Below are positions 10,521-44,750 of a DNA stretch of 64,000 nt, in pieces. The notes beneath the pieces are model-generated. The model was given only the letters and a program-made list of their open reading frames with translations. It searched no databases and had not been told where the DNA came from. The DNA is taken from NCBI GenBank assembly GCA_959608885.1, contig CAUHSG010000003.1, positions 66,470 through 130,469 of the forward strand. Reading direction: 5' to 3'. The position numbers were made by a program, and so were the translations under genes. Numbering within the stretch: the stretch's first letter is position 1; each line of letters opens with the position of its first letter. Source of the stretch: an uncultured Coriobacteriia bacterium (GTDB taxonomy: Bacteria > Actinomycetota > Coriobacteriia > Coriobacteriales > QAMH01).

Positions 10521-10542
10521 GTGATTGCCTCTCTCTCGGGGT

Positions 10543-11472: not shown

Positions 11473-11489
11473 GTTCTCTACCCTTCGTC

Positions 11490-12251: not shown

Positions 12252-12260
12252 CGTGCCCTC

Positions 12261-24558: not shown

Positions 24559-26001
24559 ATGCTGCTCACCGCGAAATACGTCATTCCCATTACGTCGCCC
24601 TACATCGAGGACGGCGCCGTTCTCGTGCGCGATGACAAGGTTCTCGATTTGGGCACTGCGTCCCAGCTCAAGGACAAGTATCCGATGGAAGAAGTACGCG
24701 ATTTCGGCCTGTCCGTGCTCATGCCCGGATTCATCGACGTGCACACGCACCTTGGATACACGGCGCTGCGCGGCATGTTCGGCGATCTGCCCTATGCCGA
24801 GTGGAAACGCCGCGTCTTGCACACGGAGCCCTTCTTCACCGAGGAAGACTGGATTGACTCGGCGCGCGTTGGTGCACTCGAGGCTGTGGCCAGTGGCATT
24901 ACGACGATTGCGGATATTTCCGCATCGGGCGTCTCGCTTGTCCCCGCCAAGGAGATGGGCCTGCGCGCGCGTGTGTACTACGAAGTCTTGACCACGCAGA
25001 AGGAGCATGCCGAAGATGTCGTGCGCGAAGGCGTGGAGAAGATCGAGCGCTGGAAGGACGAATACGGAAGCGATTTGCTCGACTTCGGCCTTGCTCCCGG
25101 CCCTGTCTATGGTTGTCATCCGAGCGTCTTTCAGGCTATCGCCGATGTGGCGATCGAGAAGGACATTCCCGTAGCCATGCATCTGGCAGGAAGCCAGGAA
25201 GAGGCCGACTTCATCCGCTACGGTTCCTCTCCGTTTAGCGTTCACGTGAGCGAGCACGAGCAGGGCAAGCTTGCCGCTGCCTATCCGCCCTGGTTGCCCG
25301 CAGGCACCTCGCCTGTGAGCTACGTGAGCAACTGGGGCATACTCGACGTGCCTGGCATCCTTGCAATTCACTGTGTGCATGTTGATGATCGGGACATCGG
25401 CATCCTCAGGGACAAGCAGGTGCGCATCGGCTATTGTCCGCGCATCAACGCCAAGCTCGGCATGGGCTCAATGCCACTCGAAAAGTTCTGGGCGGCAGGT
25501 CTTACCATCGGCTTGGGCACTGACTCGCCGGCGGCTGTCGATACGACTGACATGATTGACGAGATGCGCATCGGCCTCATGATCACCCGCGCGACGAGTT
25601 CTGAGCGCTTCGTGCAAGCATCAGCGAAGAACGCCCTGCGCATGGCGACGATTGGATCTGCGCGCGCACTGGGTATCGAGGATAAGGTCGGGTCGCTCGA
25701 GCCGGGCAAGCAGGCAGACATCATCGCCATCGATTTGCATAATTCGCACCAGAACCCCACGACCGATCCGGAGAGTGCCGTTATCTACACGGCCAACCAG
25801 GACAACGTCAAGATGACTATGGTTGCCGGACGCATCCTCTACGACAACTTCGTCCACGTGTCGGGGTGTGATCGCGACGCGATTATCGACCGAGCGCGCG
25901 CCCTGCGTGTACGCATACGCGAGGAAGTCAGCGACGATGCGCTGCACAGGTCGCTCATAGAGCATGCAACGCAAGACGAACGAGACCGCTACAACAGATA
26001 G
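24559..26001 (+). CDS. Amidohydrolase-superfamily deaminase/chlorohydrolase-like protein (MtaD/SsnA-like)
   Basis: 480 aa. Metal-binding GFIDVHTHL near the N-terminus, later HLAGS and GLGTDS motifs typical of the cytosine/MTA deaminase branch. Confidence 0.85.
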   Translation: MLLTAKYVIPITSPYIEDGAVLVRDDKVLDLGTASQLKDKYPMEEVRDFGLSVLMPGFIDVHTHLGYTALRGMFGDLPYAEWKRRVLHTEPFFTEEDWIDSARVGALEAVASGITTIADISASGVSLVPAKEMGLRARVYYEVLTTQKEHAEDVVREGVEKIERWKDEYGSDLLDFGLAPGPVYGCHPSVFQAIADVAIEKDIPVAMHLAGSQEEADFIRYGSSPFSVHVSEHEQGKLAAAYPPWLPAGTSPVSYVSNWGILDVPGILAIHCVHVDDRDIGILRDKQVRIGYCPRINAKLGMGSMPLEKFWAAGLTIGLGTDSPAAVDTTDMIDEMRIGLMITRATSSERFVQASAKNALRMATIGSARALGIEDKVGSLEPGKQADIIAIDLHNSHQNPTTDPESAVIYTANQDNVKMTMVAGRILYDNFVHVSGCDRDAIIDRARALRVRIREEVSDDALHRSLIEHATQDERDRYNR

Positions 26002-26008
26002 GGTCATC

Positions 26009-26194
26009 ATGTCAAACAAGAACAAGTCTTTTCAGAAGAACAAGCAGCAAAAGCTCGAGCAGGAGCTGGCGGCTCAGTATCGTCGCGAGCAGCGTGACCG
26101 TCGTACGAAGCTCCTCAAGACCATCGGCATCACCATTCTTTCGGTGCTCCTGATTATCTCGTTCTGCTTCCCGGCATTCACGATGCTCTGGTAA
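26009..26194 (+). CDS. Small basic single-TM protein (hypothetical)
   Basis: ORF 25964..26194 trimmed to MSNKNK. Basic N-terminus followed by one hydrophobic helix (ITILSVLLIISFCFPAF). Weak evidence. Confidence 0.4.
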   Translation: MSNKNKSFQKNKQQKLEQELAAQYRREQRDRRTKLLKTIGITILSVLLIISFCFPAFTMLW

Positions 26195-26201
26195 GAGGCG
26201 C

Positions 26202-26350
26202 CCCCCGCACTCCGCAGGCGGCACTCGTATCGAGACAGCAAAGACCCAAAGCTGCTGCGCAACTCGCACGCCCTATGGGCGTGCTCAGACAGTGCTCGCA
26301 AATCGCTTTGGGTCTTTGCTGTCTCACTCGCGAGCCTGCGTCGTGCGGGG
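26202..26350. repeat. Nested palindromic element (cruciform-capable)
   Basis: Perfect 21-nt inverted repeat GAGACAGCAAAGACCCAAAGC (26232-26252) / GCTTTGGGTCTTTGCTGTCTC (26305-26325). Inner hairpin GCACGCCC-tat-GGGCGTGC (26266-26284). Imperfect outer arms CCCCCGCAC..CGCAGGC (26202-26219 / 26333-26350). Confidence 0.6.
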
Positions 26351-26483
26351 GCTGGCCAGTAGGGGACGGAGGGCGACCAGGAGGTCTCCCCTACAGGCGC
26401 TTGACGTGTGCGCTCCGTCGTCCTGAGCGGGGCGCCGCAAGGCGCGAAGTCGAAGGACCTCACGACGGGCTGCAGCTCGATCT

Positions 26484-27275
26484 CTACGAGGGCATGAGCG
26501 AAGCGCTATTTCCTCCCAGGTCGGCAGCGGTCTCCTCCTGCATGGACTTCCATGCCTCCTGTCGCTTCGCCAGCACTGCGCGAACCTCGGGGTCGTCGCT
26601 GAGTGCCGGTGGCGTCCAGGGCATCTCCCCAAGCGCGCGGACCACATCGCCAATCTTGCCATAGGGGATCGAGATAATCTGGAGCCCCGCCGGGTAGGTC
26701 TGCCGTCGTGACATGCCATGCCCCATGCCGCTGGTAATCGTGTTGACCTTGTCCTTGACGTAGGGATACGAGTACATCCATGCGCATGAGAGCACGGGTG
26801 AGGTCTTCGATTCCCACAGGTCTCCCGAGTAGTACGAGGTTGCGCGCATGAGGATGGTCGCCTGTTGCGTGTTTGCTACGCAGATGACGAGATCGGGGTC
26901 GAATTCGCAGGTCGCGACTGGGGAGAAGCTCACGTAGTTCACCGATCCGCGCGGCAGCGTCTCAATCTGCGTGTAGAGGCGCGCGTTGGGCGCCTGGGTC
27001 TTGAAGATCTCGAAGTCCTTGCCCGCCTGGCCGCTCGCTGCGAAGCTGGGCTTGTCGATCATTCCCAGAATCATGGTGCCGAAGCAGGTGTCGTCCTCTG
27101 CGGTTGTGTAGAAGCTCTCCCCGGTTGTCTGTGCTCGCTTGACGAACTGGCAGAAGGCGTCTCGCTCCTTTACGCGCTCGAGGCCCTCGGGCTTTGCATA
27201 GCTGAACTTGATGGCGACGGGCGGGAACTCCATATCGAGCTTCGCGAGCGTGTCCTTTGCTTCCTGGCTGAGCAT
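26484..27275 (-). CDS. DUF169 domain-containing protein
   Basis: ORF trimmed to ATG 27275 (MLSQEAKD...) behind GGAAAGGA. PVAIKF...FCQFV...DLVICVANTQQATILMRA... pattern matches DUF169 as I remember it. Confidence 0.8.
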   Translation of the reverse strand: MLSQEAKDTLAKLDMEFPPVAIKFSYAKPEGLERVKERDAFCQFVKRAQTTGESFYTTAEDDTCFGTMILGMIDKPSFAASGQAGKDFEIFKTQAPNARLYTQIETLPRGSVNYVSFSPVATCEFDPDLVICVANTQQATILMRATSYYSGDLWESKTSPVLSCAWMYSYPYVKDKVNTITSGMGHGMSRRQTYPAGLQIISIPYGKIGDVVRALGEMPWTPPALSDDPEVRAVLAKRQEAWKSMQEETAADLGGNSASLMPS

Positions 27276-27379
27276 GTGGTGTCCTTTCCGAATATCGGTC
27301 GGTACGCGGCAGAATATAGCATGCACATGCACTTCGCGTTAGTGGAAGATGCCTGGATAAAAGGTGCTAATTGAATGTG

Positions 27380-28153
27380 TCACTTGCCGTCGAACAGGTT
27401 CTTCAGCTGAACGCGATTGTTGACGTTGAGCTTGCGATACGCGTTGTAGACATGCTTCTTCACGGTCGAAAGTGATATGTAGAGCTTCTCAACGATTTGC
27501 TGTTCGGAGTCCCCGTCAAGCACATGCTCGATGACCTCACGCTCGCGAAGAGTGAGACCGGCTTGCTCGATGATGCTCTGCGCGCAGGGAGTGCTCGTGC
27601 GCCAGCGTTCTTCCTCGAGCAAACTTGCAAGCTTGAGGGCGATATGTGGTGCCATCAGGTTTGCAATGCGCACATCTCGGTTGGTGAATTCGCTCTCTGC
27701 CTTGGTGTTGAACAACGCGATTTCTCCGATGACGGCATTATCGTGCGAGAGTAGCGCGCGCAATGCATAGGTAAGGCCCTCTGGCTTGTAGATTTCGTTC
27801 CAGACGGGGGAGCTCTCGCGCACGTCCTCTGGAATCATGTCCCTGTCGCGGAAGGCATAGCTTGCTGTCTTGAGGTACAAGCCGTCATAGTACGGGTCTT
27901 CATCGTAGTTGTCGGTGAATTTCTCGATGAGATGTGCTGGAGCGCCAACGATTACGGGACGACTTGAGCGAGCGATGCCATGCTCCATCTTGATCATGGA
28001 AAACGTGCCCTGGTAACTTGGCGTCAGGGAGCGCAGGCAAGAGAGCGTTTCGTACTGTAGCTTCTCGACGCTGGAGGTGGTGTTGATGCGATAGATACTG
28101 TCGAGCATGAACTGCCAGTCGCGTTCATGAAGTTGTGCGTCATCGTTGGTCAT
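27380..28153 (-). CDS. LuxR-family transcriptional regulator with N-terminal sensory (GAF-like) region
   Basis: 257 aa. C-terminal LuxR/FixJ HTH LTLREREVIEHVLDGDSEQQIVEKLYISLSTVKKHVYNAYRKLNVNNRVQL. No receiver domain. Confidence 0.85.
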   Translation of the reverse strand: MTNDDAQLHERDWQFMLDSIYRINTTSSVEKLQYETLSCLRSLTPSYQGTFSMIKMEHGIARSSRPVIVGAPAHLIEKFTDNYDEDPYYDGLYLKTASYAFRDRDMIPEDVRESSPVWNEIYKPEGLTYALRALLSHDNAVIGEIALFNTKAESEFTNRDVRIANLMAPHIALKLASLLEEERWRTSTPCAQSIIEQAGLTLREREVIEHVLDGDSEQQIVEKLYISLSTVKKHVYNAYRKLNVNNRVQLKNLFDGK

Positions 28154-28431
28154 TTGAGATCGTAGTCTCCCTTCGCGAGCTAATTATAGGTTACGAACTA
28201 CGAAGTCTCTTTGTGCAATGTGCATCATTTCGACTAAGTTCTACTCATTTGTATAACCATTCTTCCGAATTTGCGCAAGGCTTTCCAAAATCGAATGCAA
28301 TCTGCTTTCAAATCAACTTATTTCAATCTTCGAATCCATTTAAGAAATGTGGAGAACCCATGAAAATCAGGCCTCGTTGTTCCAAAGCGACGAGCGCCAT
28401 TACGAAAGTGCGCTCAGGAAAAGGAGGGAAC
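28154..28431. promoter_or_regulatory. A+T-rich divergent promoter region between the LuxR gene and the C45 hydrolase gene
   Basis: 278 nt, clearly more A+T-rich than the flanks. Contains related half-sites AATCGAATGCAATC and CAATCTTCGAATCC. No operator proven. Confidence 0.35.
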
Positions 28432-29517
28432 ATGAGAGACGATTCGAAGCTGATACCCCAGGTCTTCATGAAGGGCAGCTTCCGCGAGATGGGTTCCCAA
28501 TATGGCGAAGCCATGGCGAGCGAGATTGCCTTCCAGAAGGACTGGTGGACCAAGGTTCTCGCCGCTCACTGGCCTAACATGGACATGGAGCGCGCGCTCA
28601 ATGCCGCCAAGACGATGTACGCGCCCGCTGTGGAGCTGTATGCACCGCGCTGGGCCGACTTCATTGAGGGCATGGCCGAAGGAGCCGGCCTTCCCTATGA
28701 TGACGTGCTCTGGATTAACGTTGCCTCCAACTTGCTCGAGGGCCCGGCAATGGCCATGAGGATGGTTGCGGGTGGCTGCACCGACATTGGCGTCCAGCCC
28801 GACAAGACCGATATCGGCAAGCTCATCATCGGCCAGAATCTTGATTGGCATCCCGAGCTCAAGCCCGTGTGCCTGCACTTCGATCCGGCAGATGCCCCCA
28901 AGGCGCTGGCGTTCACCATTTCCGGTGCGCTTCCGCAGTTCGGCATCAGCGAGAATGGCTATGGCTCGTTTGGCAATGCGCTGGGCACCGAGGAGAACAA
29001 GACGGGCGTCACCATGAACGCCCTTACCGCCGAGCTGTTGTTCCAGGATTGCATTGGCTCTGCCTGCGAGCGCATTACCATGGCGGATCGTTCCATGTGC
29101 TTCAACCACATGCTTGGTGCTGCCGATGGCACGCTCATCGACTTCGAGACCACGCCATCGAGCTTTGGCGTCTTGCTTCCCGAGGAAAAGGGCTGGATTG
29201 CGCATACCAATCACTACATCACCAGCTGGATGCAGAAGGATGACACCTTCAAGACCTTCCCCGACACGTTCGTGCGCCTGTCCTGGGCAGAGAAGTTCCT
29301 CCGCGATGCCGATGTCATCACGGTCGACACACTCAAGAAGATTTTCAGCGACCACCATGGCGACAAGACGCGCTCGCTGTGCACGCATCTTGTCCCCGGA
29401 GCCTCGTTTACCGAGTGCTGGCAGACGGTCTACTCGATGATCTCCATTCCCGAGGACGGAGTCATCTACGCGACTACGCAGCCGTGCGAGCACGAATACG
29501 AGGAGTATCGCCTGTAA
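28432..29517 (+). CDS. C45-family Ntn-hydrolase (acyl-CoA:6-APA acyltransferase / peptidase C45-like)
   Basis: ORF 28135..29517 trimmed to ATG 28432 behind AAGGAGGG. Candidate self-processing site/nucleophile VAGG-CTDIG. FREMGSQYGEA opening typical of the family. Confidence 0.8.
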   Translation: MRDDSKLIPQVFMKGSFREMGSQYGEAMASEIAFQKDWWTKVLAAHWPNMDMERALNAAKTMYAPAVELYAPRWADFIEGMAEGAGLPYDDVLWINVASNLLEGPAMAMRMVAGGCTDIGVQPDKTDIGKLIIGQNLDWHPELKPVCLHFDPADAPKALAFTISGALPQFGISENGYGSFGNALGTEENKTGVTMNALTAELLFQDCIGSACERITMADRSMCFNHMLGAADGTLIDFETTPSSFGVLLPEEKGWIAHTNHYITSWMQKDDTFKTFPDTFVRLSWAEKFLRDADVITVDTLKKIFSDHHGDKTRSLCTHLVPGASFTECWQTVYSMISIPEDGVIYATTQPCEHEYEEYRL

Positions 29518-29581
29518 CTCAGGGAATCGGGGGCATGAGGCAATGCGCTTCGTGCCCCCTGGTACACAAGGAGGAAAAGAA

Positions 29582-30805
29582 ATGTCAGCTATGAAGCAAA
29601 TTCCCAAGTGGCGTATGGTCATTGGCATAGCCGCACTGTTCATCTCGAGCATGTGCACGCTGGGCGACATGGTCATCACCCCGATTGCTGCAAATCTCTA
29701 TGAGGTGTTTGCGGATGCGCCCGAGGCGCTTCTCAACTTCGGTATCACGGGCCCGGCACTCGTGGGCCTGCCCTTTGGTCTGCTGGCGGGCTGGCTGTGC
29801 GACCGCTTCGACAAGAAGTGGGTCATGGTCGTGGGCTTCGCCATCTTCACGTTCTCTGCGATCTTTGGCGCGGCCATCGAGAACATCTGGTACTTCGTCA
29901 TCACGCGCTGCCTGGCGACTGGCGTGGGCTGGGGCATCACCAACACCGCTGCGTTCTCCATCCTGGCGGACCTCTTCTCCGATGAGAAGAAGCATAGCCG
30001 CATGGTCGGCTTCTACAACGCGACCATGTCCATCATGGGCGCCATCCTCTCCATGGCAGCTGGCATGCTTGCTGCCTCGGGCGTATGGCAGGATGCCTTC
30101 GCCATCTACTGGATTGCTGCACCTGTGCTCATTCTCATGATCATCTTCCTGCCGTCGCTTAAGCCGACGCCCATGGAGAATGCGGAAGGCAAGGTCGAGA
30201 CGGCTGCCGAGGTCGAGGAAGAGGACAAGGGATGGATTGGCAAGATTATCCCGCTGACCATTCAGGTGTTCTTCTTCGCATTGTTCTTCTTCGTCATGCT
30301 CTACATGGTCGCCCTCTACATTGCAGATGCTGGCGTGGGTGACGAGGCCTTTGCGGGTACGGTTGCCTCGTGCATGACGCTGGCCACCATGGTCGGCTCT
30401 ATCCTGTTCGAGCCGGTCTTCTCCAAGATGAAGAACACCGTTTACATGCCCTTCATGCTCGCTATTGGCGTGATGTTCATCCTCATGGGCTTTGTCGTGA
30501 CGCCGGTCATGACCATTGCCGGCGCCATTGTCATGGGCTTCTCGTGGGCATACTACTTCTGCTACTTCTATGTTCGCGTTACCCAGCTCGTTCCCGAGAA
30601 TCGCGCGGGTTCGGCAACGGGCGTCGTGGCCTTCTCTGATGGCCTTGCGGCAACTCTGTGCTCCTACCTCGTCACGGGCCTCATGGGCGCAACCGGCATG
30701 AACTGCGTCCAGCTCTGGCCGATTTTCGGTGTCGGCACTCTGATTACGCTGGCTATCTCGGTTGTCTACTGGATGCTCACGCGCAAGAAGAGCGTTCAGC
30801 AGTAG
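29582..30805 (+). CDS. MFS transporter (paralogue 1)
   Basis: ORF trimmed to ATG 29582 behind AAGGAGG. 407 aa, ~12 helices, MFS loop WLCDRFDKKW. Confidence 0.85.
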   Translation: MSAMKQIPKWRMVIGIAALFISSMCTLGDMVITPIAANLYEVFADAPEALLNFGITGPALVGLPFGLLAGWLCDRFDKKWVMVVGFAIFTFSAIFGAAIENIWYFVITRCLATGVGWGITNTAAFSILADLFSDEKKHSRMVGFYNATMSIMGAILSMAAGMLAASGVWQDAFAIYWIAAPVLILMIIFLPSLKPTPMENAEGKVETAAEVEEEDKGWIGKIIPLTIQVFFFALFFFVMLYMVALYIADAGVGDEAFAGTVASCMTLATMVGSILFEPVFSKMKNTVYMPFMLAIGVMFILMGFVVTPVMTIAGAIVMGFSWAYYFCYFYVRVTQLVPENRAGSATGVVAFSDGLAATLCSYLVTGLMGATGMNCVQLWPIFGVGTLITLAISVVYWMLTRKKSVQQ

Positions 30806-30943
30806 GCAAGGAAAAGTTCGAGGACGCTTTACGAAAAAGGGGAGACTCCGTCTGCATGGGGTCTCCCCTTTTCACGCGTGCTGCCTGGGCGGGATGTGGC
30901 CTTGAGTGGTGGCGCGATCCGATTGGAGTAGAGGAGGCTTCGT

Positions 30944-32164
30944 ATGGCACGTGATGCTCGCATGTCATCATGGCGCATGCTTATCGCGATGGCGGCTCTG
31001 TTCGTCTCGAGCATGTGCACGATGGGTGACTTGGTGATTACGCCCAGCGCCGCTGATCTATACGTTGCGTTTGCGGATGCGCCCGAGGCGCTCATCAACT
31101 TCGGCATCACGGGCCCGGCTTTAGTGGGATTGCCATTTAGCCTGCTGGCGGGCTGGCTGTGCGACCGCTTCGACAAGAAGTGGATCATGGTCGCGGGCTT
31201 CGCCATCTTCACGTTTTCCGCGATTTTCGGTGCGGCCATCGAGAACATCTGGTACTTCGTCATCACGCGCTGCCTGGCAACCGGCATGGGCTGGGGCATC
31301 ACCAACACCGCGGCGTTCTCCATCCTGGCGGACCTCTTCTCCGACGAGAAGCAGCACGGTCGCATGGTCGGCTTCTACAACGCGGCCATGTCCATCATGG
31401 GTGCCGTGTTGTCATCCGTTGCCGGGGTGCTCGCGTCCTATGGCATCTGGCAGAACGCATTTTCGATCTACTGGATTGCCGCTCCCACGCTCGTGTTGCT
31501 CATCGTCTTCCTGCCCTCCATGAAGCCCAAGCTCATGCGTGGAGCCGATGGGCACGTCGAGACCACAGAGGAGATCAAAGCCGAGGACAAGGGCTGGTGG
31601 AAGAGCATCCTGCCGCTTAATGCCCAGGTGCTCCTGGTTGCCGTATGCTATTTCGTGCAGCTTTACATGATCTCGCTGTTCGTCGCTGATACGGGCTTGG
31701 GAGACGAGAGCTTCAGCGGCTTGCTTGCCTCATGCATGACTATGGCGTCCTGTCTGGGCTCGCTTGCATTTGGTCCCTTGTTCGCAAAGATGAGGAATGC
31801 GGTCTACTTCCCGTTCCTCATCATCATCGGACTGTGCTTCATCGTTATGGGCTGCTTCGTGGGACAGACGACGGCAGTCTTCTGCTCCCTGCTCTTCGGC
31901 TTCTCTTGGGCGTTCTACTTCTGTTACTTCTACGTGCGCGCCGCAGAGCTTGTTCCCGAGAACCGCAAGGGTGCCTCGACAGGGGTAATTGCGTTTTCTG
32001 TTGGCCTCGCCGCCTTTCTCTGCTCGTACCTCATCACGGGTCTCATGAATGTAACGCATCTGGGCTGCGCCGCGCTTTGGCCCTGCTTTGGCGCGGTGGT
32101 CATCATCGTGTGCGCCGTCTCGATGCTTTATTTCTTCACGAAGCGAAGCAGAAGGTCTTGCTAG
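30944..32164 (+). CDS. MFS transporter (paralogue 2, tandem duplicate)
   Basis: 406 aa. GAGGAGG RBS at 30931-30937. N-terminal half nearly identical to paralogue 1, C-terminal half diverged. Confidence 0.85.
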   Translation: MARDARMSSWRMLIAMAALFVSSMCTMGDLVITPSAADLYVAFADAPEALINFGITGPALVGLPFSLLAGWLCDRFDKKWIMVAGFAIFTFSAIFGAAIENIWYFVITRCLATGMGWGITNTAAFSILADLFSDEKQHGRMVGFYNAAMSIMGAVLSSVAGVLASYGIWQNAFSIYWIAAPTLVLLIVFLPSMKPKLMRGADGHVETTEEIKAEDKGWWKSILPLNAQVLLVAVCYFVQLYMISLFVADTGLGDESFSGLLASCMTMASCLGSLAFGPLFAKMRNAVYFPFLIIIGLCFIVMGCFVGQTTAVFCSLLFGFSWAFYFCYFYVRAAELVPENRKGASTGVIAFSVGLAAFLCSYLITGLMNVTHLGCAALWPCFGAVVIIVCAVSMLYFFTKRSRRSC

Positions 32165-32191
32165 CCCATAGATGCTGTCCCCTCCTTAAGG

Positions 32192-32228
32192 GTAGCCCCA
32201 CGATGCAGACATCGCGGGGCTACTTTGA
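32192..32228 (+). terminator. Hairpin terminator after the second MFS gene
   Basis: GTAGCCCCACGATG-caga-CATCGCGGGGCTAC (one mismatch) followed by TTTGA. Confidence 0.5.
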
Positions 32229-32244
32229 CCTGGAGATAGCGTTG

Positions 32245-32577
32245 CTAGGCGCTCAGGGGATGGGGGAGCATGCCAGCTGATTTAAGGTCTTCGTCAACAA
32301 GGCCACGTAGGTAGTCAGAACGTGATACGCCAAGGTCCTCGGCGCGCTTGTCCATGAGCTCAACTATGGTGACTGGCTCCTTGAAACCGACGAGCTGCAG
32401 GTCGTCGGCGAACTTGGGAGGTCGTCCTGGTTTTTTGACAGAAATTGGGCTATCGGGAATATCGCCCTGAGCGTATATTTCCTCACGTTCGGCAAGCTGC
32501 TCGCGTGTTAGGTCAAAGCGCTCCTCCATCTCCTCATCCGAGACAGGTTCAAGGTTAATTATTTGGATTAAGCTCAT
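32245..32577 (-). CDS. Ribbon-helix-helix antitoxin, BrnA-like
   Basis: 110 aa. GRPPK motif followed by a C-terminal RHH-like segment VTIVELMDKRAEDLGVSRSDYLRGLV. Lies 24 nt downstream of a small toxin-like ORF. Confidence 0.6.
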   Translation of the reverse strand: MSLIQIINLEPVSDEEMEERFDLTREQLAEREEIYAQGDIPDSPISVKKPGRPPKFADDLQLVGFKEPVTIVELMDKRAEDLGVSRSDYLRGLVDEDLKSAGMLPHPLSA

Positions 32578-32601
32578 CTAGCACCCTTCTAGTGGGAGGT
32601 C

Positions 32602-32811
32602 TCATCGCATGAAAATAACAATGCCTTCCCAGTCTTCAGCAGCGACCATTTGCATGGGGCGCCCCTTCATGTCAGGGCCAATTGCCACAATCTCACCTTC
32701 GTGCAGTGCTGTCCGCCGGCGCATTGCCATGGGATTGGTCCAGGCATGAACAATATCCTCCTTGGCTATTCCATGCTTCAGGGCATGGTCATGAATCTTG
32801 AGGCTAATCAT
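32602..32811 (-). CDS. BrnT-like small toxin (possibly C-terminally short)
   Basis: 69 aa. KHGIAKEDIVHAW and IGPDMKGRPMQMVA..GIVIF resemble the BrnT pattern (KHGVsFEEA ... iG...gR.l.vv....irIIsAR), but the ORF stops where BrnT usually continues. Confidence 0.45.
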   Translation of the reverse strand: MISLKIHDHALKHGIAKEDIVHAWTNPMAMRRRTALHEGEIVAIGPDMKGRPMQMVAAEDWEGIVIFMR

Positions 32812-32850
32812 GAAGCCCCTTATTACGTTTAACGAAATTATACATTGCTG

Positions 32851-33171
32851 TTACCTGAAGCTCAATGGCATATGCATGCCTGCTGTGGTCCACGGGGTAT
32901 CTGCGCTTGGTCTCTCAAGGGCTGCGTACGCATGTCTGCACACGAGTAGGCGTCCTGGCACCACGTCCCGTTCGGCGCGCATGACCGCCCCGTGCTTGTC
33001 GACGAAGGCGACGTCTATTGGGTAGCACATGCCAAACGTGTGCACGCTCTTGCACGGGGCTATCACGAGGATGGCTTCTCCGTCGCCCCAGTTGTGCGAG
33101 GATCCCAAAAGCCCACGGGCTCTGGCGCCAAAGCCCAGGGCGAAGACGAAGCGCATGCTCTCGCCGTTCAT
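32851..33171 (-). CDS. DUF192 domain protein, last gene of the Tad operon
   Basis: ORF trimmed to ATG 33171, which overlaps the upstream stop as ATGA (33168-33171). Core ...LVIAPCKSVHTFGMCYPIDVAFVDKHGAV... is DUF192-like. Confidence 0.7.
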   Translation of the reverse strand: MNGESMRFVFALGFGARARGLLGSSHNWGDGEAILVIAPCKSVHTFGMCYPIDVAFVDKHGAVMRAERDVVPGRLLVCRHAYAALERPSADTPWTTAGMHMPLSFR

Positions 33172-33603: not shown

Positions 33604-35700
33604 TCAGCCTCCCAGACTTGCGCCAAAGCGTCCGAGCACGTCTTCGAGCCTGGCGTCGATGTCGTCGGGAACCGGCAGGTACAGCGACCCATCACCGGTG
33701 CCGAGCCCAATGTCGGCAAGGGGGATCCGGGCAATCTCCAGACCATGCTCGTCCAGGAACTCGCCAATCTCGGGTACGCTCTCGATGTCGGCCACGAGGG
33801 CATCCAAGTCCCTCATACTGATGGCCCCGTACATTTGCGCACCGAGCTTGAGCCTGCCAATCACGTCTGCAGCCGCGCCCCCGCCACGTTCGAGCACGTA
33901 TGACGTGTTGACGAGCACGGGCTTGTAGCTATCGAGGTCGGCGGGCTCTATCCCCGCGGTGGCAAGCGCCGTCTCGAACGTGGACACCGCGGCATCCGAA
34001 AGCGTGGTACCCACGACCGGTATGGCGCCAAGGGTCTTGCGAAAGCCCGACTTCAGCCCCTCGCTGCCATCGACGTACGCCTTGAGCACGCTGCCCCAGG
34101 CGCCAAAGACGGTCTTGACGGGGCCCGACAGCAGGCTCTCTGATGGAACGAGCCCTTGCGCGACATCGGCGATGACATTGCCGGCATCGTCCGCGGCATC
34201 CGGGGCCAGCGTCGCCGCCGACATGGCGATGCGTGCGGGAACAGCCGCCTCGTCATGGAGAAAGGGGACGCCTTGCACGGAGCTGCCGGGGGCCACGACG
34301 ACGCAGATGCACCCATAGCGCCCCGGCGGCTGCGGGTCGTATCGCTTGCCGGCCAGCGATCGCGCCGCATCGGAAAGCAGCGATCCGATCTCCTCGCGTT
34401 CGGCGTCAAGCTCCTGTCTGGCGGCCTGCCCGTCTTCAATGGCCTGAGCATAGTCGCGTGATGCCTCCACGAGCGCAAGGTAGTGATACTCGAACCCGTT
34501 GCTGATGGAGGTCGATGCGCTGGGTACGCGGCCAAGCGTCGTCGCGGAAAACCTGCACGTGGGGCAGCTCTGGCATGCACCCGAATCGATGTCGCAGACC
34601 GCCGCACTGCCAGAAGGCGAGCCGGCGGCGTATTCCGGGCAGCCGGTCCAGGCGTGCAGCGTACGGGTCTCGCCATTGATGGACGTGGGGTATATGCAGT
34701 CCGTGTACAACGAGGTTTCCCTGATCTGCGCAGTGTTGCGAGCGAGCTGGACGAGGTGGGGGACTTCAGATCCCGAGGCGCTTGTCTCGATGCGACCGCT
34801 CGAGACCTGGTTGAGCGCGTATGCGTAGAACTGCTTGCGGGCGATTGACTCGCCCACGCGCTCGGGCGATCCCGATGCGTATGCGCCCGGCTCGCTTGCA
34901 TACCGTGCCTGGTAGTAGGCGACTGCCCGGTTGAGGGCGACGGAGAAGCTCCAGTTGTCCGGTGACGAGAAGTATGGGTTCTTCGCGCCGGAGATGCTCG
35001 AGAGCTTTGCCGCGCGCTCGAACATGCTCATGCCCTCGTTGCCGCAATCCGCCTGCCAGGCTCGTTTTCGCGCCGCGTCCTCGCGCTGCTGCGCTTCCTG
35101 CTGGGCAACGCTTGCCTGCTGCACGCTCTCCTCTTTCGACTCGATTTCATGTGCCGCCTGCCGTGCCTGCGAGTCGTCGGGAATGGATATGTCGATTCCC
35201 TCGATGGGCACGGTGATGGCAGCGCCTGCATAGGGGATGCCGCTTGCATCGGCATTTGCCTGGATGACCTGGCCGCTGCGAAGCGCGCAGAGGGCGGGTA
35301 GTGCCTTCTGGGCGGCGTCGAGCCCACGTATGGCGGAGTCGACAAACCGGTCGCGTGTTTCGAAGACCTTCGATCCCACGTGCGCGATTTCGGCGGCGGC
35401 TCCCTGGGCTCCGGGAATGAACGCCGTGACGGCAGAGACGGCATAGACCGTGAGTCCCAGCAGCGACAGGGACAATGCGCTTGCGTCAACTACCTGACCG
35501 GCCGTCACGAATTCGGCGATAACGCCATCGGCTGCGAGGGCCCCGGCGTCGGCGACGTACTGGATCTGTCCCGATCGCGAGCCGATTGCGATGCCTCGCG
35601 TGCACGCGAGCACAAGCGCCAAGGCCACGAGGACGGCCAATGCGGCTGCAGGGGTGGTAAACCCACCCTCATGGCGCATGAAGGCTCTGCCCCACTTCAT
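33604..35700 (-). CDS. Large TadG-like Tad-associated membrane protein (~698 aa)
   Basis: ORF 33604..35871 trimmed to ATG 35700, an ATGA overlap with the upstream stop (ATG 35706 also possible). N-terminal HEGGFTTPAAALAVLVALALVLA resembles the TadE/G-like pilus-assembly N-terminus. The rest has no recognisable domain. Confidence 0.7.
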   Translation of the reverse strand: MKWGRAFMRHEGGFTTPAAALAVLVALALVLACTRGIAIGSRSGQIQYVADAGALAADGVIAEFVTAGQVVDASALSLSLLGLTVYAVSAVTAFIPGAQGAAAEIAHVGSKVFETRDRFVDSAIRGLDAAQKALPALCALRSGQVIQANADASGIPYAGAAITVPIEGIDISIPDDSQARQAAHEIESKEESVQQASVAQQEAQQREDAARKRAWQADCGNEGMSMFERAAKLSSISGAKNPYFSSPDNWSFSVALNRAVAYYQARYASEPGAYASGSPERVGESIARKQFYAYALNQVSSGRIETSASGSEVPHLVQLARNTAQIRETSLYTDCIYPTSINGETRTLHAWTGCPEYAAGSPSGSAAVCDIDSGACQSCPTCRFSATTLGRVPSASTSISNGFEYHYLALVEASRDYAQAIEDGQAARQELDAEREEIGSLLSDAARSLAGKRYDPQPPGRYGCICVVVAPGSSVQGVPFLHDEAAVPARIAMSAATLAPDAADDAGNVIADVAQGLVPSESLLSGPVKTVFGAWGSVLKAYVDGSEGLKSGFRKTLGAIPVVGTTLSDAAVSTFETALATAGIEPADLDSYKPVLVNTSYVLERGGGAAADVIGRLKLGAQMYGAISMRDLDALVADIESVPEIGEFLDEHGLEIARIPLADIGLGTGDGSLYLPVPDDIDARLEDVLGRFGASLGG

Positions 35701-36167
35701 TTCCATGCTCCAATCCACGATGCGGGCGCATAGTCGCTGCGGGCCCACTCGGGCACTGATGCGCAGCTCGCCTCGACGCGCTGCTCGATGGCTCCGTTTT
35801 CGTCGATGTCGTTCGCGAGGCCCGCGACGATGCCAAAGAGGGGCAGCGGTTCGACATGGTTGACGATGCACATGCTCGCAGCCCCGCCCTGTTCGCTCGA
35901 CCAGGTGATGTTCCAGTCTTCGTCCATGTGGAAGACTGCCACCTTGGGTATGGCGTCAAGCCTGCGTTCCACAAACGCCCGCACCGACGTCTCGTCACTC
36001 GTGTTCGTCGCCAGCAGGCGGCAGCCCTCCGCGGCCGCCGCATTCATGATGCAGCGGTCGTAGAGGAGCAGCGCCGGTTGCAGGAGCAGGCCAAAGAGGG
36101 CAAACAGCACCGGGAGCAGCACGGCCGCCTCGATGGTCGACTGACCCGATTCAGAAGAGAAGCGCAT
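35697..36167 (-). CDS. TadE-like pseudopilin/pilus assembly protein
   Basis: ORF trimmed to ATG 36167 behind GGAGGGGTGG. MRFSSESGQSTIEAAVLLPVLFALFGLLLQP is a TadE-type N-terminus. Confidence 0.75.
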   Translation of the reverse strand: MRFSSESGQSTIEAAVLLPVLFALFGLLLQPALLLYDRCIMNAAAAEGCRLLATNTSDETSVRAFVERRLDAIPKVAVFHMDEDWNITWSSEQGGAASMCIVNHVEPLPLFGIVAGLANDIDENGAIEQRVEASCASVPEWARSDYAPASWIGAWK

Positions 36168-36351
36168 CGACCACCCCTCCCGCCGTTGTGAGTGCGTGCG
36201 AGGCGCCCGCCTGTACCAGGTCGGTGACGTCGCCATTTGCGACAAAGTGCCACAAGGCCGCGAACGCGCCCATGAGTGCAATGAGCACGAGCCCCACGAG
36301 CAGGTACTCGACCGACGCCTGTCCGGCTTCCCACCTTCTCGTATACCTCAC
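36151..36351 (-). CDS. Second Flp-type prepilin-like small protein
   Basis: 66 aa. EAG-QASVEY-LLVGLVLIALMGAF fits the Flp G/XXXXEY processing motif plus a hydrophobic helix. GTG start overlaps the flp stop (GTGA, 36348-36351). Confidence 0.55.
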   Translation of the reverse strand: MRYTRRWEAGQASVEYLLVGLVLIALMGAFAALWHFVANGDVTDLVQAGASHALTTAGGVVDALLF

Positions 36352-36554
36352 AGCCCGTTTACTCCGCTCGAAATGGCCTCCCAGAGCTCGCTGATCTTGC
36401 CCCTGAACGCTGCGATGGCGATCATCGCGATGACGGCCAGCACGCCGACGAGGATGGCGTATTCGGTCGTCCCCTGACCTTCCTCGCGCAGGCAGTGCAG
36501 CCTCGTCGTGGCCCTGACGTATGCACCGATCATCTTGTCCTTGAGTTTTTGCAT
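36348..36554 (-). CDS. flp: Flp-family type IVb pilin
   Basis: 68 aa. Leader followed by G-QGTTEY-AILVGVLAVIAMIAIAAF (G/XXXXEY motif). AAGGAG RBS. Confidence 0.8.
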   Translation of the reverse strand: MQKLKDKMIGAYVRATTRLHCLREEGQGTTEYAILVGVLAVIAMIAIAAFRGKISELWEAISSGVNGL

Positions 36555-36573
36555 GTCGTCTCCTTACCGTTGG

Positions 36574-37317
36574 TCAAAAGCCTGTCTGGACAAATTGGAG
36601 AAGCACCGGCCCCATGACCAGGATGAGCATGGCGGGCAGGATGCATGTTCCCGTGGGTACGAGCAGCTTGACGGGCGCCTTGGCTATCCGACGTTCGATG
36701 GCGCCGCGCCGCTGCCTGCGAACATCGCATGAGAAGCGAGCGAGCATGTCGGCAAGAGGCGATCCGTAGTGAATGGCCTGAATCGACGTATCGGCGAAGC
36801 GCTTCAGCGCCCTTGATTTCGTGCGCGCGAAGAGCGACTCAAGTGCTTGCTGGCGCGAGGCAAGACCACTGCTCCACTCCAGGCGCGCGCCTGCAAGCTG
36901 GTGCGCCAGCACGTTGTCGAACTTGTCGCAATAGAGGTCCAGCGCGGCGTCGAAGGATAGCCCCGAGCGGATGCCCATGGCGACGATGTCTGCCATCACG
37001 TCGACCTGCTCATCGCAGGCGCTACGCAGCTCGCGGGCTGCCCGGGCGTCGAGCATGGCGGGGGCCTTGCGGGTAAGCAGGTAGGCGGTGGGCATGCCTG
37101 CGACGAGCATCCAGGGGGTCGTTGCAAACGAGATGACGAGCGCCGCAGCGCAGAACACGAGAAAGCAGAGCGACTTGTCGCGCAGGATGTCCTCGACGTC
37201 GAGTTGCCCGTGCCTTGGTGCCGCGAATGCGAGACGCGTCGTCATCAGGCAAGCGCACCGCCATGCGCACGCGCAGGCAAGGATGCAGGCGAGCAGGCGC
37301 AATGCAGCTGGAATCAT
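36574..37317 (-). CDS. tadC: TadC-like type II secretion system F-family membrane protein
   Basis: ORF trimmed to ATG 37317, one nt after the tadB stop. T2SSF-like cytoplasmic domain (GIRSGLSFDAALDL...) flanked by TM helices. Confidence 0.8.
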   Translation of the reverse strand: MIPAALRLLACILACACAWRCACLMTTRLAFAAPRHGQLDVEDILRDKSLCFLVFCAAALVISFATTPWMLVAGMPTAYLLTRKAPAMLDARAARELRSACDEQVDVMADIVAMGIRSGLSFDAALDLYCDKFDNVLAHQLAGARLEWSSGLASRQQALESLFARTKSRALKRFADTSIQAIHYGSPLADMLARFSCDVRRQRRGAIERRIAKAPVKLLVPTGTCILPAMLILVMGPVLLQFVQTGF

Positions 37318-37318
37318 G

Positions 37319-38095
37319 TCAGACCGCCTCCTCGAGGTCGACCGAGAAGTCGACGGCAAGGGCCCTGCGCACGAGCACGATGCCCGCCGCCTCAAACAGG
37401 AGCGCGAGGACGAAGAGGCACACGCCGAGCGGGGAGCTCAGAAACCCCGTGAGGTATCCGGGCGAGAAGACGGACAGTATCGCCAACAGCGCAAACGGCA
37501 TGATGGTCACGATGCGGCTCGAAAGGCGTCCCTGTGCCGTCTTGGTGCGCAAGTCATCCTTGAGCTCGGCAGTCTGCTGGAGCAGGCCCGCCACGCTTTC
37601 GAGTATGTCGGTCAGGCTGCCGCCTGACTGGTGCTGGATCTCCATCGCGACGGCGAGGTAGGCGAACTCGGATCCTCCCGTACGCTGCCGCAGCTTTTCC
37701 AGTGCCTCGTCGAAGCCCTGGCCGGCCTCGAGATCCCACACCGTGCGCTTGAGCTCGCCAGCGAGCGGCTCGCTGCAGTTGTCTGCGGCATAGCGCAATG
37801 CCATGACAAGTGACGATCCACTCTCCAGCGCCGTGCATAGCAGGCGCAGCACCTCGGGCATCCCCTGTTCCAGGGCCTCGACGCGCTTTCTATGCCGGTA
37901 TCCGCCAAGCATCCTCGAGATGGGCGTGCTTGCCAGCATCCTGCCGTAAACGCGCTCGAGGGCGCGCCTTCCCGACGAGCGCAGGATCGATCGGCTGAGG
38001 TGGACGTGATCCAAAACCAGAAGACAAGATCGGTACATTCCATAGGCCGTTGTCACGAGTGCCCCAAGCAGGAGGGCTGCACTGATTGCACCCAT
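37319..38095 (-). CDS. tadB: TadB-like type II secretion system F-family membrane protein
   Basis: ORF trimmed to ATG 38095 behind GGAGGAGGTG. T2SSF-like core (LESGSSLVMALRYAA...GQGFDEALEKL...). Confidence 0.8.
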   Translation of the reverse strand: MGAISAALLLGALVTTAYGMYRSCLLVLDHVHLSRSILRSSGRRALERVYGRMLASTPISRMLGGYRHRKRVEALEQGMPEVLRLLCTALESGSSLVMALRYAADNCSEPLAGELKRTVWDLEAGQGFDEALEKLRQRTGGSEFAYLAVAMEIQHQSGGSLTDILESVAGLLQQTAELKDDLRTKTAQGRLSSRIVTIMPFALLAILSVFSPGYLTGFLSSPLGVCLFVLALLFEAAGIVLVRRALAVDFSVDLEEAV

Positions 38096-39417
38096 TGCTC
38101 CACCTCCTCCTGCGTGGCGATGCCCATGTAGGGAAGGTCGTAAACCCAGGCGGGAACGAGACCCCATTCGTAGTGGCGGTTGCGCCTGTTCCAGCTGACG
38201 GTGGGAACAAAGCCCCCTTGGGATGCGCCGCCTTCTTCGGCATCGAGTTCGCGTCTGCCCTCGTTGCGCATGGCGATCTGCGTGATGCGTCGCATGCCGC
38301 CGGCCAGGCGGTCCTGTTGCACGATGAGGTCGAGTGCCGATGCGATCTGCTCTCTAATGATCTGAGTGGGCAGGTCCATGCCGTAGCGCACCATCATGAC
38401 AAGACGGGGTATGGCCTCGGCGGGCGAGTTGGCATGCAGCGTCGTCATCGAGCCATCGTGGCCGGTGTTCATGGCCTGGAGCATGTCGAGGGCCTCCGCG
38501 CCGCGGCATTCGCCCACGATGATGCGGTCGGGACGCATGCGCAGGGCATTCGTGACGAGGTCGCGTATGGTTACGGCGCCACGCCCCTCGGCATTTGCCA
38601 GGCGCGCCTCCAGGCGTATGACATGCGGGTGCTGGTCGAACCTGAGCTCGGCGCTGTCCTCGATCGTTATGATGCGCTCGGCGTGGGGGATGAGTCGCGA
38701 AAGCGCATTGAGAAGGGTTGTCTTGCCCCCACCTGTGCCCCCAGACACGGCGATGTTCTTGCGTGCGCGTACGGCCCAGGCAAGCAGGCGCTCCATTTCG
38801 GGGGAGAGCGCATCCATGTCCACCAGCTCGTCGAGCGTGAAGGATTGGGTTCGAAACTTCCTGATGGTGACTGACGTCCCGTCGATCGAAAGGGGCGGGA
38901 TGACGACGTTGACGCGATGTCCCTCTGGCAGACGCGCGTTTACCAGTGGGCTCTGCTCGTCGACGCGACGTCCCAATGGGGACACGATGCGATCGACGAC
39001 GAGCCGTAGCTGCTCCTCGGAATCGTAGCGCTCCGCGCTACGATAGACGCTGCCCCTGCGTTCGAAGAAGATCGCATCGGGGCCGTTGACCATTATCTCG
39101 GTGATCTCGTCGTCCTTGAGCATCTTTTCGATGGGACCCAGGCCCAGGACCATGTCAAGGGTGTGCTCGACGAGCGCGTCGCGCTCTTGCCCGGTCATGT
39201 GTCCAAAGCCATGCACGCTCAGGAGCTGGTCGATCGTGGCGGCCAGCTCGCGTCGCGCGACCTCGCGCCCCCTGGCGAGCAGCTGGGCGATGCGCTCGCT
39301 CGGGATTTCCCCGTAGAGCAGATCCCGCAGGCGCGCATGCTCCCTTTCGTATCCTGCACCCATTGCATCGGTGGAGTCGGCAACCTGGGTCTTCGTTATG
39401 TAGTCACCGAGCTTCAT
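38053..39417 (-). CDS. tadA: CpaF/TadA-family pilus assembly ATPase
   Basis: 454 aa. EIMVNGPD, Walker A SGGTGGGKTTLLNAL, Asp/His boxes (IIVGECRG, GHDGSMTTLHAN). Confidence 0.92.
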   Translation of the reverse strand: MKLGDYITKTQVADSTDAMGAGYEREHARLRDLLYGEIPSERIAQLLARGREVARRELAATIDQLLSVHGFGHMTGQERDALVEHTLDMVLGLGPIEKMLKDDEITEIMVNGPDAIFFERRGSVYRSAERYDSEEQLRLVVDRIVSPLGRRVDEQSPLVNARLPEGHRVNVVIPPLSIDGTSVTIRKFRTQSFTLDELVDMDALSPEMERLLAWAVRARKNIAVSGGTGGGKTTLLNALSRLIPHAERIITIEDSAELRFDQHPHVIRLEARLANAEGRGAVTIRDLVTNALRMRPDRIIVGECRGAEALDMLQAMNTGHDGSMTTLHANSPAEAIPRLVMMVRYGMDLPTQIIREQIASALDLIVQQDRLAGGMRRITQIAMRNEGRRELDAEEGGASQGGFVPTVSWNRRNRHYEWGLVPAWVYDLPYMGIATQEEVEQWVQSVQPSCLGHS

Positions 39418-40202
39418 GAGAAGAGCCTCCGTCTTTTTTGCGGCGTGGGGGCAAACTCGATGCCGATGCGCGGGAGCAGGCAGCTCAGCATCCTCTGGAT
39501 ATCCGGTATGGGGGCGGCCTCGCCCTCGACGAGCTCCTCGATGCGGCCGGCTTCCACCAGTGCCCCGACGCCGCCCTTGCCATCGGCAAGGGCGAAGAGC
39601 TCGTCTGCGTCAAGGGAGACGCGTGCATGCTCGAACTCGCTTCTGGGCAAGTTCGAGGACCGGTTGAGCACGTAGGCGATGCGCGCTGTGGGAATGCCGA
39701 TCCTCTGGCAGAGCTCGCCTGCCTTGATCGCCCCGTAGACCGACGAGCGCCGATGGTCCATCAGGATGATCACGAGGTCGGATGACACGAGGAGTGCCCC
39801 GGTGAGACCCGACCAGTACTGGCCGGTATCCGCAATGACGAGGTCGTAGCGATTGCGCACGTGATCCATGAGTTCGACCACGGCATCGGCGACCTCCTCT
39901 GCCACCTCGGGCAACACGGGTGCCTTGAAAAGGTCGAGTTTGGCCGAGATGGGGACGGGGTTGCATGCGGTGCCTTGCGCCAGGTTGGAAAGCGCGACGT
40001 CGAGCCCCAGCCAATAGCCCATGTCCCCAAACTGCAGGTCGCCTTCGAGAATCGCCGTCCTGATCGACTGGCGTGCCACGAGATGCCCTGCGAGAAGCGC
40101 CAGCGTGCTCTTGCCCGTGCCCCCGCTTGCCGACACCAGGGTGACGAGTGGCGCCTGGTTGCACGTGGCCGAATACGCCCGCTTGTCCACGGTGCCCATC
40201 AT
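39414..40202 (-). CDS. TadZ/CpaE-like ParA/MinD-family ATPase
   Basis: 262 aa. Deviant Walker A SASGGTGKSTLA. ATGA overlap with tadA (39414-39417). Confidence 0.8.
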   Translation of the reverse strand: MMGTVDKRAYSATCNQAPLVTLVSASGGTGKSTLALLAGHLVARQSIRTAILEGDLQFGDMGYWLGLDVALSNLAQGTACNPVPISAKLDLFKAPVLPEVAEEVADAVVELMDHVRNRYDLVIADTGQYWSGLTGALLVSSDLVIILMDHRRSSVYGAIKAGELCQRIGIPTARIAYVLNRSSNLPRSEFEHARVSLDADELFALADGKGGVGALVEAGRIEELVEGEAAPIPDIQRMLSCLLPRIGIEFAPTPQKRRRLFS

Positions 40203-40862: not shown

Positions 40863-41081
40863 GACACCTCCACGACACGTCCGTTGGAGCCGTGACTATG
40901 CAACAGGGGCGTCCGAGCCATCTACCCCCAGAACCTGTACGATTTCGGAGTTGAATCGGATCGACTTCGGATTGATTTCAGACGCGATTCCGAAAGCCCC
41001 CGTTCAGCGCAGGGGAGTGCGTTGCGTCAAGAGCACGTCCAATGCATGCGCAATTGGGGGATTCTCAAAAAATTTTTCGCA

Positions 41082-44649: not shown

Positions 44650-44750
44650 GCGTCGCATGGGCTTGGGCGGCATCATGTCCCGAACCTGGTCAGGTCCGGG
44701 AGGAAGCAGCCATAAGGGGCCTCTGGTGGGCGCCCAAGTCCATACGGCGC
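44650..44750 (+). ncRNA. ffs: Small bacterial SRP RNA (4.5S-type)
   Basis: Conserved domain IV core CCTGGTCAGGTCCGGGAGGAAGCAGCC (44685-44711). Closing helix GGGCTTGGGCG (44659-44669) pairs with CGCCCAAGTCC (44731-44741). Typical location upstream of dnaX-ybaB-recR. Ends approximate. Confidence 0.75.

Follow-up and report, generated by a model that had tools for sequence, protein, structure and literature searches.

What would a gut bacterium sense, and what would it cut, with a LuxR-family transcription factor set back to back with a cysteine hydrolase and two transporters? The question is raised by positions 26484 to 32164 of a 64,000-nucleotide stretch of contig CAUHSG010000003.1 from an uncultured Coriobacteriia bacterium (this whole stretch is called the window below). 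A first-pass annotation, made from the letters alone, had described the five genes found here as an inducible locus for the import and deacylation of an amide-conjugated compound. Our analysis keeps the core of that description, the cassette of regulator, hydrolase and transporter together with its amide theme, while two parts of it are lost: the membership of a DUF169 gene and the label 'accessory'. On balance, and with moderate confidence, we propose that the cassette is a self-contained, ligand-inducible unit for the uptake and cytoplasmic deacylation of a small amide-linked compound. The combination of regulator, transporter and hydrolase is that of a classical inducible operon, and its parts are familiar throughout.

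Organization of the locus

The open reading frame (ORF) map, together with Pfam and NCBIfam profile searches, finds all five genes where they had been drawn, and the divergent spacer is A+T-rich as described, the window as a whole having about 60% G+C. The hydrolase is a member of the C45 family of N-terminal nucleophile (Ntn) enzymes, and both transporters belong to the major facilitator superfamily (MFS).

26484 to 27275, minus strand: DUF169 protein, 263 residues (PF02596, E=1.6e-33)
27380 to 28153, minus strand: LuxR-family transcription factor, 257 residues (GerE, PF00196, E=1.3e-14)
28154 to 28431, no strand: divergent intergenic region, 278 nucleotides, 42% G+C
28432 to 29517, plus strand: C45-family Ntn cysteine hydrolase/acyltransferase proenzyme, 361 residues (NF040521)
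29582 to 30805, plus strand: MFS transporter 1 (MFS1), 407 residues (PF07690, E=2.5e-35)
30944 to 32164, plus strand: MFS transporter 2 (MFS2), 406 residues (PF07690, E=2.6e-39)

Mechanistically, a small molecule would bind the GAF-like N-terminal domain of the soluble LuxR-family protein, which, through its GerE helix-turn-helix acting on the 278-nucleotide region, would control the divergent C45-MFS-MFS operon. The MFS proteins would bring the substrate into the cell. There, the cytoplasmic C45 proenzyme would cleave itself at Gly115/Cys116, and the new N-terminal Cys116 would hydrolyse an N-acyl (amide) bond to give an acid and an amine. What the analysis itself establishes is the identity of the genes, the catalytic residues, the folds as predicted, the cytoplasmic location of the enzyme and the co-inheritance of the neighbouring genes; in this scheme we infer the regulation by LuxR, the direction of transport, hydrolysis in preference to acyl transfer, and the amide nature of the substrate.

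The hydrolase is a C45 proenzyme

The assignment of the hydrolase to the C45 (AAT) type, and not to the choloylglycine hydrolases (CBAH), had been made in the first-pass annotation and is solid. The protein matches the NCBIfam C45_proenzyme profile NF040521 over residues 14-344 with 186.1 bits against a cut-off of 85, while its match to Pfam PF03417 (AAT) is borderline, at exactly the gathering score (23.2 bits). No match to the CBAH profile (PF02275) was obtained at E<=0.01 in the Pfam search, and the nucleophile stands at residue 116, not at position 2 as in the CBAH family. By sequence, the only solved relatives are isopenicillin-N acyltransferase (IAT; 2x1d, E=1e-6) and CV2077. In the alignment to IAT, Gly115-Cys116 falls on Gly102-Cys103, and D138 (in NLDW) and N260 (in HTNH) fall on D121 and N246, which are reported as active-site residues of the IAT structure. 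Loss of the nucleophile in orthologs would have spoken against the earlier proposal; Cys116 instead never varies, whether 7 or 65 homologs are aligned, and across the 65 it shares this invariance with N136, D138, H258, T259 and N260.

The AlphaFold2 (AF2) model of the enzyme, built from the 65-sequence alignment, has a mean pLDDT of 90.7, and its sole stretch below 50 is residues 105-109, within the segment that leads to Cys116. The model adopts an alpha-beta-beta-alpha Ntn fold like that of IAT. Foldseek superposes it on 2x1c_A with E=9.8e-25 and a TM-score (TM) of 0.85, the IAT structures overall giving 0.82-0.86; NAAA and acid ceramidase come next (TM 0.62-0.66), and cephalosporin acylases and bile salt hydrolases follow further down (TM 0.4-0.6, the bile salt hydrolases alone 0.39-0.48). 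An identity as a bile salt hydrolase or other CBAH enzyme, for which there is neither a profile match nor more than this low structural similarity, was rejected.

Self-cleavage is predicted at Gly115/Cys116, the Cys codon lying at 28777-28779. The C45 sequence contains no hydrophobic segment, no transmembrane segment and no signal peptide, and the enzyme is therefore cytoplasmic.

Regulator, hydrolase and transporter form a conserved unit

To place the cassette among its relatives, the C45 clade was collected by a word-indexed search of 5.8 billion proteins, which returned 7 matches, and by a profile search that contributed a further close relative. When 1.84 billion cluster representatives were searched exhaustively with HMMER, the 50% cluster of the window came first; neighbours with 37% and 34% identity followed, and after them the broad family at about 30% identity or less. 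Of the representatives, 2282 matched at E<=1e-3 and 55 did so at E<=1e-30; bacterial C45 enzymes as such are numerous. The clade itself is small and is limited to host-associated metagenomes and Ruthenibacterium. Eight lineages, with C45 proteins 34-100% identical to that of the window, were compared: the window itself and the seven below, each with its C45 identity to the window and the local gene order.

L112, 90%: amidohydrolase, DUF169, LuxR, C45, MFS; a sister species, syntenic with the window
L106, 81%: LuxR divergent to C45, then the start of an MFS gene
L101, 75%: LuxR divergent to C45, MFS; entirely different flanks (eut, TetR and other unrelated genes)
L108 (with L107), 52%: MFS, then LuxR divergent to C45, MFS; 49% G+C
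L001 (with L105), Ruthenibacterium lactatiformans, 46%: LuxR divergent to MFS, C45; the LuxR is a 467-residue membrane protein with about ten hydrophobic segments
L125 (with L126 and L127), 36-37%: MFS divergent to C45, MFS, LuxR; the LuxR is a large membrane protein
L128 (with L129), 34%: 313-residue protein, C45, MFS; a LysR regulator is nearby

The cognate MFS gene adjoins C45 in all eight lineages and a LuxR-family gene in seven of them. By contrast, among 79 more distant C45 loci (at most 32% identity), a match to the MFS protein lies within 3 kb in just one, and the same holds for the regulator. The core of the cassette is thus the C45 gene and its MFS partner, nearly always with a LuxR-family regulator, as the first-pass annotation had anticipated in treating the three as linked. 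Recurrent neighbours of the distant homologs are extracytoplasmic function (ECF) sigma factors, anti-sigma factors and membrane proteins. We considered these distant contexts as a clue to the substrate and set them aside as uninformative here, since in Anaerolineae and others the C45 gene comes after ECF-sigma, anti-sigma and bactofilin-like membrane genes.

The sequences also diverge in step from locus to locus. Full-length LuxR orthologs beside C45 are 69% (L112), 64% (L106), 52% (L101) and 37% (L108) identical to that of the window, and the MFS proteins 70% (L101), 61% (L108), 41% (L001), 38-42% (L125) and 28% (L128). Such conservation and co-divergence of regulator, hydrolase and transporter speak for a function in common.

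The same data bear on the simplest alternative, that these are chance neighbours with unrelated functions. No shared operator emerged from a k-mer search (below), and some strains combine a broken regulator gene with intact copies of the others, as such an explanation would have it. The gene set nevertheless recurs in eight lineages with different flanks, in different gene orders and at a G+C of 48-62%. Contradicted by this conserved synteny, chance association is in our estimate very improbable.

The spread of the cassette over hosts of 48-62% G+C is compatible with an older horizontal acquisition. Composition is compatible with it too: the cassette and its near surroundings (26000-33000) have a G+C of 0.54-0.58 against 0.59-0.66 in the flanks, and G+C at third codon positions is about 0.70 in LuxR and C45 against about 0.78 in neighbouring genes. 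For the module as a whole, set against flanks of 0.59-0.63, the deficit is slight.

Membership of the DUF169 gene in the cassette is unsupported

The DUF169 gene lies 104 nucleotides downstream of LuxR in the same orientation, and its product matches PF02596 with 116.8 bits against a cut-off of 27; no solved structural relative was found for it by sequence. The gene had been counted as a member of the module. It is present in the syntenic sister-species locus L112 (92% identical), yet it is missing from the other six versions of the cassette (L101, L106, L108, L001, L125 and L128) and has a counterpart nearby in 1 of 80 distant C45 loci. Because of its absence from six of the eight versions, membership is unsupported, and we removed the gene from the cassette.

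In that single distant case, at 7425-8840 of locus L002 (deltaproteobacterial metagenome-assembled genome, CAVZNY010000009.1), about 1 kb upstream of the C45 homolog, a 471-residue ORF fuses DUF169 (E=1.5e-51) to the dephospho-coenzyme A kinase CoaE (E=1.1e-55). The fusion hints at a possible role for DUF169 related to coenzyme A (CoA).

The regulator carries a predicted sensor domain and has relatives beside other C-N hydrolases

The regulator had been called a receiver-less LuxR protein with a sensory N-terminal domain, and this description stands. A GerE helix-turn-helix occupies residues 200-250 and is matched by GerE-type domains in the PDB with E down to 2.6e-8. No Response_reg match (PF00072) was found in the protein, the response-regulator matches spanning the helix-turn-helix only; Pfam finds nothing on residues 1-190, and the 257-residue chain has no transmembrane segment. 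In the AF2 model (pLDDT 84, pTM 0.66) the N-terminal part is folded: two N-terminal helices are followed by a sheet of five strands, into which helices are inserted, and then by a long helix that connects to the helix-turn-helix. Residues 1 to about 190 are best described as a predicted GAF/PAS-like sensor domain.

A Foldseek search of the PDB with this model ranks the full-length quorum-sensing receptors CviR, SdiA, RhlR, TraR and QscR at the top (E to 4.6e-9, TM 0.45-0.54, identity 15-20%), with phytochrome GAF domains after them. Sequence alignment to SdiA is weak (E=0.0076), and Pfam reports no match to the autoinducer-binding domain PF03472. This resemblance leads to the idea of signal quenching, in which the cassette would detect and degrade a foreign or host N-acyl signalling amide, for instance acyl-homoserine lactones (AHLs) or N-acyl amines. 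AHL receptors are indeed the closest in predicted architecture, AHLs are themselves N-acyl amides, and Ntn hydrolases include the known AHL acylases. Those acylases, however, come from another Ntn family and work in the periplasm or outside the cell, whereas the window enzyme is cytoplasmic; with the receptors so remote in sequence and their ligand-domain profile absent, we regard quenching as quite improbable.

A second group of regulators found in the homolog search is 42-46% identical over the full length and does not stand beside C45. In locus L111 (3341-7798), such a paralog is divergent to a 422-residue polytopic membrane protein with 10 segments, a CN_hydrolase (PF00795) and an EamA transporter. 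In L114 (722-4882), another is divergent to a CN_hydrolase (PF00795), a 168-residue membrane protein and a flavin adenine dinucleotide (FAD) flavoprotein with a Tat signal. In repeated cases, then, this sensor family is coupled to membrane proteins and to hydrolases of C-N bonds, the latter with two unrelated folds. Of the indirect evidence for an amide-type ligand and substrate, the theme of the first-pass annotation, this pairing is the strongest.

The transporters and the direction of transport

The two transporters are tandem paralogs with 65% amino-acid identity and 70% overall DNA identity, and MFS1 is the ortholog of the MFS protein that partners C45 in the other lineages. Both match the MFS_1 profile; motif A is present (GWLCDRFDKK), and the strict motif C of drug antiporters is absent from both proteins. 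Motif A without motif C weakly favours a symporter.

DNA identity between the two genes rises to 85-95% over gene nucleotides 121-420 (29702-30001 against 31064-31363), with a longest identical run of 47 nucleotides, which points to gene conversion or else to a very strong constraint. It is probably because of this local near-identity that many metagenome contigs end shortly after the start of MFS1.

The reverse direction of transport would suit a locus for biosynthesis and export, where C45 would transfer an acyl group from acyl-CoA to an amine, the N-acyl product would leave the cell through the MFS proteins and LuxR would couple production to a signal. The closest solved structure, IAT, is after all an acyltransferase, the transporters show weak matches to the efflux families Bcr/CflA and MdtL, and the regulator is predicted to fold like an autoinducer receptor. 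Yet none of the eight cassette versions has an acyl-CoA ligase or another biosynthetic gene conserved with it, the paralogous regulators pair with nitrilase-superfamily genes, the antiporter motif is missing, and the other characterized C45 enzymes, Tan and AzsT, are hydrolases. We consider this explanation unlikely.

Export would equally be expected if the cassette served detoxification or resistance: a harmful amide, such as a penicillin V-type beta-lactam, a conjugated bile acid or a drug, would be sensed and inactivated by C45, and the MFS proteins would expel the compound or its products from the cell. Among the Ntn relatives of the enzyme are penicillin V acylase, cephalosporin acylases and bile salt hydrolases, and the MFS gene is duplicated (in the window, L108 and L125), as is common in efflux systems, besides the weak efflux-family matches already mentioned. 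A cytoplasmic C45 would, however, require the toxin to enter the cell first; the enzyme has no sequence match to the CBAH/penicillin V acylase family, motif C is again wanting, and loss-of-function alleles are tolerated in the gut (see below). Detoxification, too, seems to us an unlikely function.

Gene starts and the intergenic region

Orthologous loci keep the opening ATGAGAGACGATTC (MRDDSK) together with a GGAGG ribosome-binding site, which fixes the start of the C45 gene at ATG 28432. An in-frame ATG at 28360 was rejected as the start, since the ORF that it opens in L112 runs for 10 codons and then meets a TGA. This ATG, 72 nucleotides upstream of the C45 start (stretch 28360-28431), has a GGAGAA ribosome-binding site of its own, and the mini-ORF could be a leader peptide or simply chance. 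Gene-start refinement puts the MFS1 start at 29582. For DUF169, the start is most likely ATG 27275, used on all related contigs, and not GTG 27332.

The 278-nucleotide region presumably holds both promoters and the binding site of the regulator. A scan of it for the sigma-70 consensus gave 0 sites against 2.4 expected. In an alignment of three orthologous intergenic regions, conservation is confined to the ribosome-binding site, the start codon and one partial block, the remainder aligning poorly. Listing the palindromes and searching seven intergenic regions exhaustively for shared k-mers (k=9-16) yielded no motif that clearly exceeded 40 shuffles; an A-rich stretch common to the window and L112 accounts for the slight excess at k=14-16.

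Strain variation and natural disabling alleles

The species that carries the cassette is a common and very prevalent member of the human gut; the public collection indexes its DUF169 protein in 1459 blocks. We used the flanking amidohydrolase (24559-26001) to compare strain contexts, and each of the 10 distinct contexts carries the module. It is, accordingly, not obviously strain-variable, which makes the earlier label 'accessory' doubtful.

Three independent disabling alleles of the regulator occur on different contigs of other strains (L094, L096 and L097): Q14* (C>T at gene nucleotide 40), a 1-bp deletion causing a frameshift, and W184*. C45 and MFS are intact at these loci. The LuxR frameshift product, P0233, has 165 residues and 12 member sequences and is found on a 128-kb contig. 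The hydrolase also has a frameshift product, P0249, which departs after residue 85, and a C-terminal fragment of 95 residues, P0010, is present on 8 contigs, long ones among them. These sequences suggest that the hydrolase is occasionally inactivated in natural populations. The alleles come from metagenome assemblies and some could be errors; nonsense substitutions are not typical of assembly artefacts. In the window, the C45 allele has Leu320 beside the invariant His319, whereas the commonest allele (P0009, 676 contigs) has Pro320.

Weighing the proposed function

Several observations weigh against uptake and deacylation as the function of the cassette. IAT, on which the C45 family was founded, depends on acyl-CoA and transfers acyl groups, and so is not a simple hydrolase. 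The subfamily matches of the MFS proteins are ambiguous (aromatic-acid symporter, MhpT, CynX, Bcr/CflA and MdtL), all far below their cut-offs, and so weak an assignment makes the import direction less secure and export possible. Consensus scan, ortholog alignment and k-mer search reveal no recognisable operator or promoter in 28154-28431. Natural disabling alleles of both the regulator and C45 imply that the function is dispensable in some hosts. Finally, we found no expression or biochemical report for any member of this C45 clade.

Nor did our literature search return a paper about the clade, about gut bacterial C45 enzymes or about what DUF169 does. An already characterized ortholog with a mundane role, which would have undercut the first-pass annotation, was not among what we found. 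Synthesis and export, detoxification and quenching are all weakened by the lack of conserved biosynthetic genes, by the cytoplasmic location of the enzyme and by the pairing of the sensor family with hydrolases of the nitrilase type. Induced uptake followed by cytoplasmic deacylation remains the reading that we prefer.

Possible significance

Going one step further, the cassette might be an unrecognized route by which gut bacteria sense, import and deconjugate N-acyl amines derived from the host or its diet, releasing free bioactive amines or lipids; we advance this as speculation and think it unlikely as a whole. By resemblance to the insect enzyme Tan, candidate substrates would include beta-alanyl and other acyl conjugates of biogenic amines, and by resemblance to the C89 structural neighbours of the model, N-acyl-ethanolamines. 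If the route existed, the regulator family would be a Gram-positive counterpart of the ligand-binding LuxR solos, specialized for amide ligands, and this specialization would account for its occurrence beside amidases whose two folds are unrelated.

The value of the finding depends on the substrate. A host or dietary conjugate, or a drug, would mean a new deconjugation activity in gut microbial metabolism, while a mundane nutrient amide would make the finding ordinary. Since the cassette brings its own sensor and transporter, substrate discovery is tractable by induction screens, ligand-binding and enzyme assays, for which the natural knock-out alleles of the regulator are ready-made controls.

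Other features of the window

Upstream, at 137-13421, a LysR regulator, an MFS gene and a Na/sulfate-type symporter precede a minus-strand cluster encoding a FixC-like FAD oxidoreductase, an AMP-binding acyl-CoA ligase, a family III CoA-transferase, an amine-oxidase-like flavoprotein and an acyl-CoA dehydrogenase. The region looks like a CoA-dependent pathway for the reduction or oxidation of an organic acid.

Convergent with MFS2, a 110-residue ORF (32245-32577, minus strand) is kept in all strain contexts and shows a weak similarity to VapB/BrnA antitoxins, far below the cut-off (E=1.6e-4). Downstream of the cassette, a Tad/Flp-type pilus locus (33604-41000, minus strand) comprises TadE, two T2SSF proteins, T2SSE, an AAA_31 ATPase and a protein of 698-755 residues. 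On the plus strand lie a bacterial small signal recognition particle RNA (44654-44749, 66.6 bits) and one tRNA (63387-63469).

Comparison with known systems

With the quorum-sensing LuxR receptors and LuxR solos (CviR, SdiA, RhlR, TraR and QscR), the window regulator shares a similar length and, as predicted, a two-domain plan with a GAF/PAS-like ligand domain and a GerE helix-turn-helix. It differs from them in lacking a PF03472 match and in its identity of 15-20%, and the cassette is hosted either by Gram-positive anaerobes of the gut (Ruthenibacterium) or by organisms known from metagenomes. Among the annotated neighbours of the cassette, which were not searched for LuxI specifically, there is no LuxI-type synthase.

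Choloylglycine hydrolases and penicillin V acylases (C59, PF02275) act on amides and share the Ntn superfamily fold with the window enzyme, yet there is no hidden Markov model match between them, and the structural TM is only about 0.4-0.5. C59 enzymes expose Cys2 after the loss of Met or a short peptide, unlike a proenzyme with a predicted propeptide of 115 residues.

Within the C45 family, three characterized members are known to us, one fungal, one insect and one from Streptomyces, and to our knowledge almost no substrate of a bacterial C45 enzyme has been established. The closest of the three in predicted fold is IAT/AAT of Penicillium chrysogenum (MEROPS C45; 2x1c, 2x1d and 2x1e; TM 0.85). 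Nucleophile Cys116 corresponds to its Cys103 and D138 and N260 to its Asp121 and Asn246, and the window protein, like IAT, is a proenzyme with a predicted propeptide, in the two proteins about 100-115 residues long and ending in Gly-Cys. The two are about 20% identical; IAT is fungal and peroxisomal, whereas the window enzyme is bacterial and cytoplasmic, and the window gene lacks a beta-lactam biosynthetic context, being paired instead with MFS and LuxR.

All three characterized enzymes, fungal IAT, insect Tan (PMC10194958) and Streptomyces AzsT (PMC10445470), act on N-acyl bonds. AzsT, a C45 peptidase of azaserine biosynthesis, takes off an N-acyl (succinyl) group (PMC10445470). It is bacterial, as is the window enzyme, the likeness being at family level; its substrate is bound to a carrier protein and its gene lies in a biosynthetic cluster, whereas the window cassette is without such genes. 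Tan hydrolyses N-beta-alanyl-dopamine and carcinine and self-cleaves at Gly-Cys (PMC10194958). It is eukaryotic and is likewise compared at family level, and it provides a precedent within C45 for the simple deacylation of an N-acyl biogenic amine.

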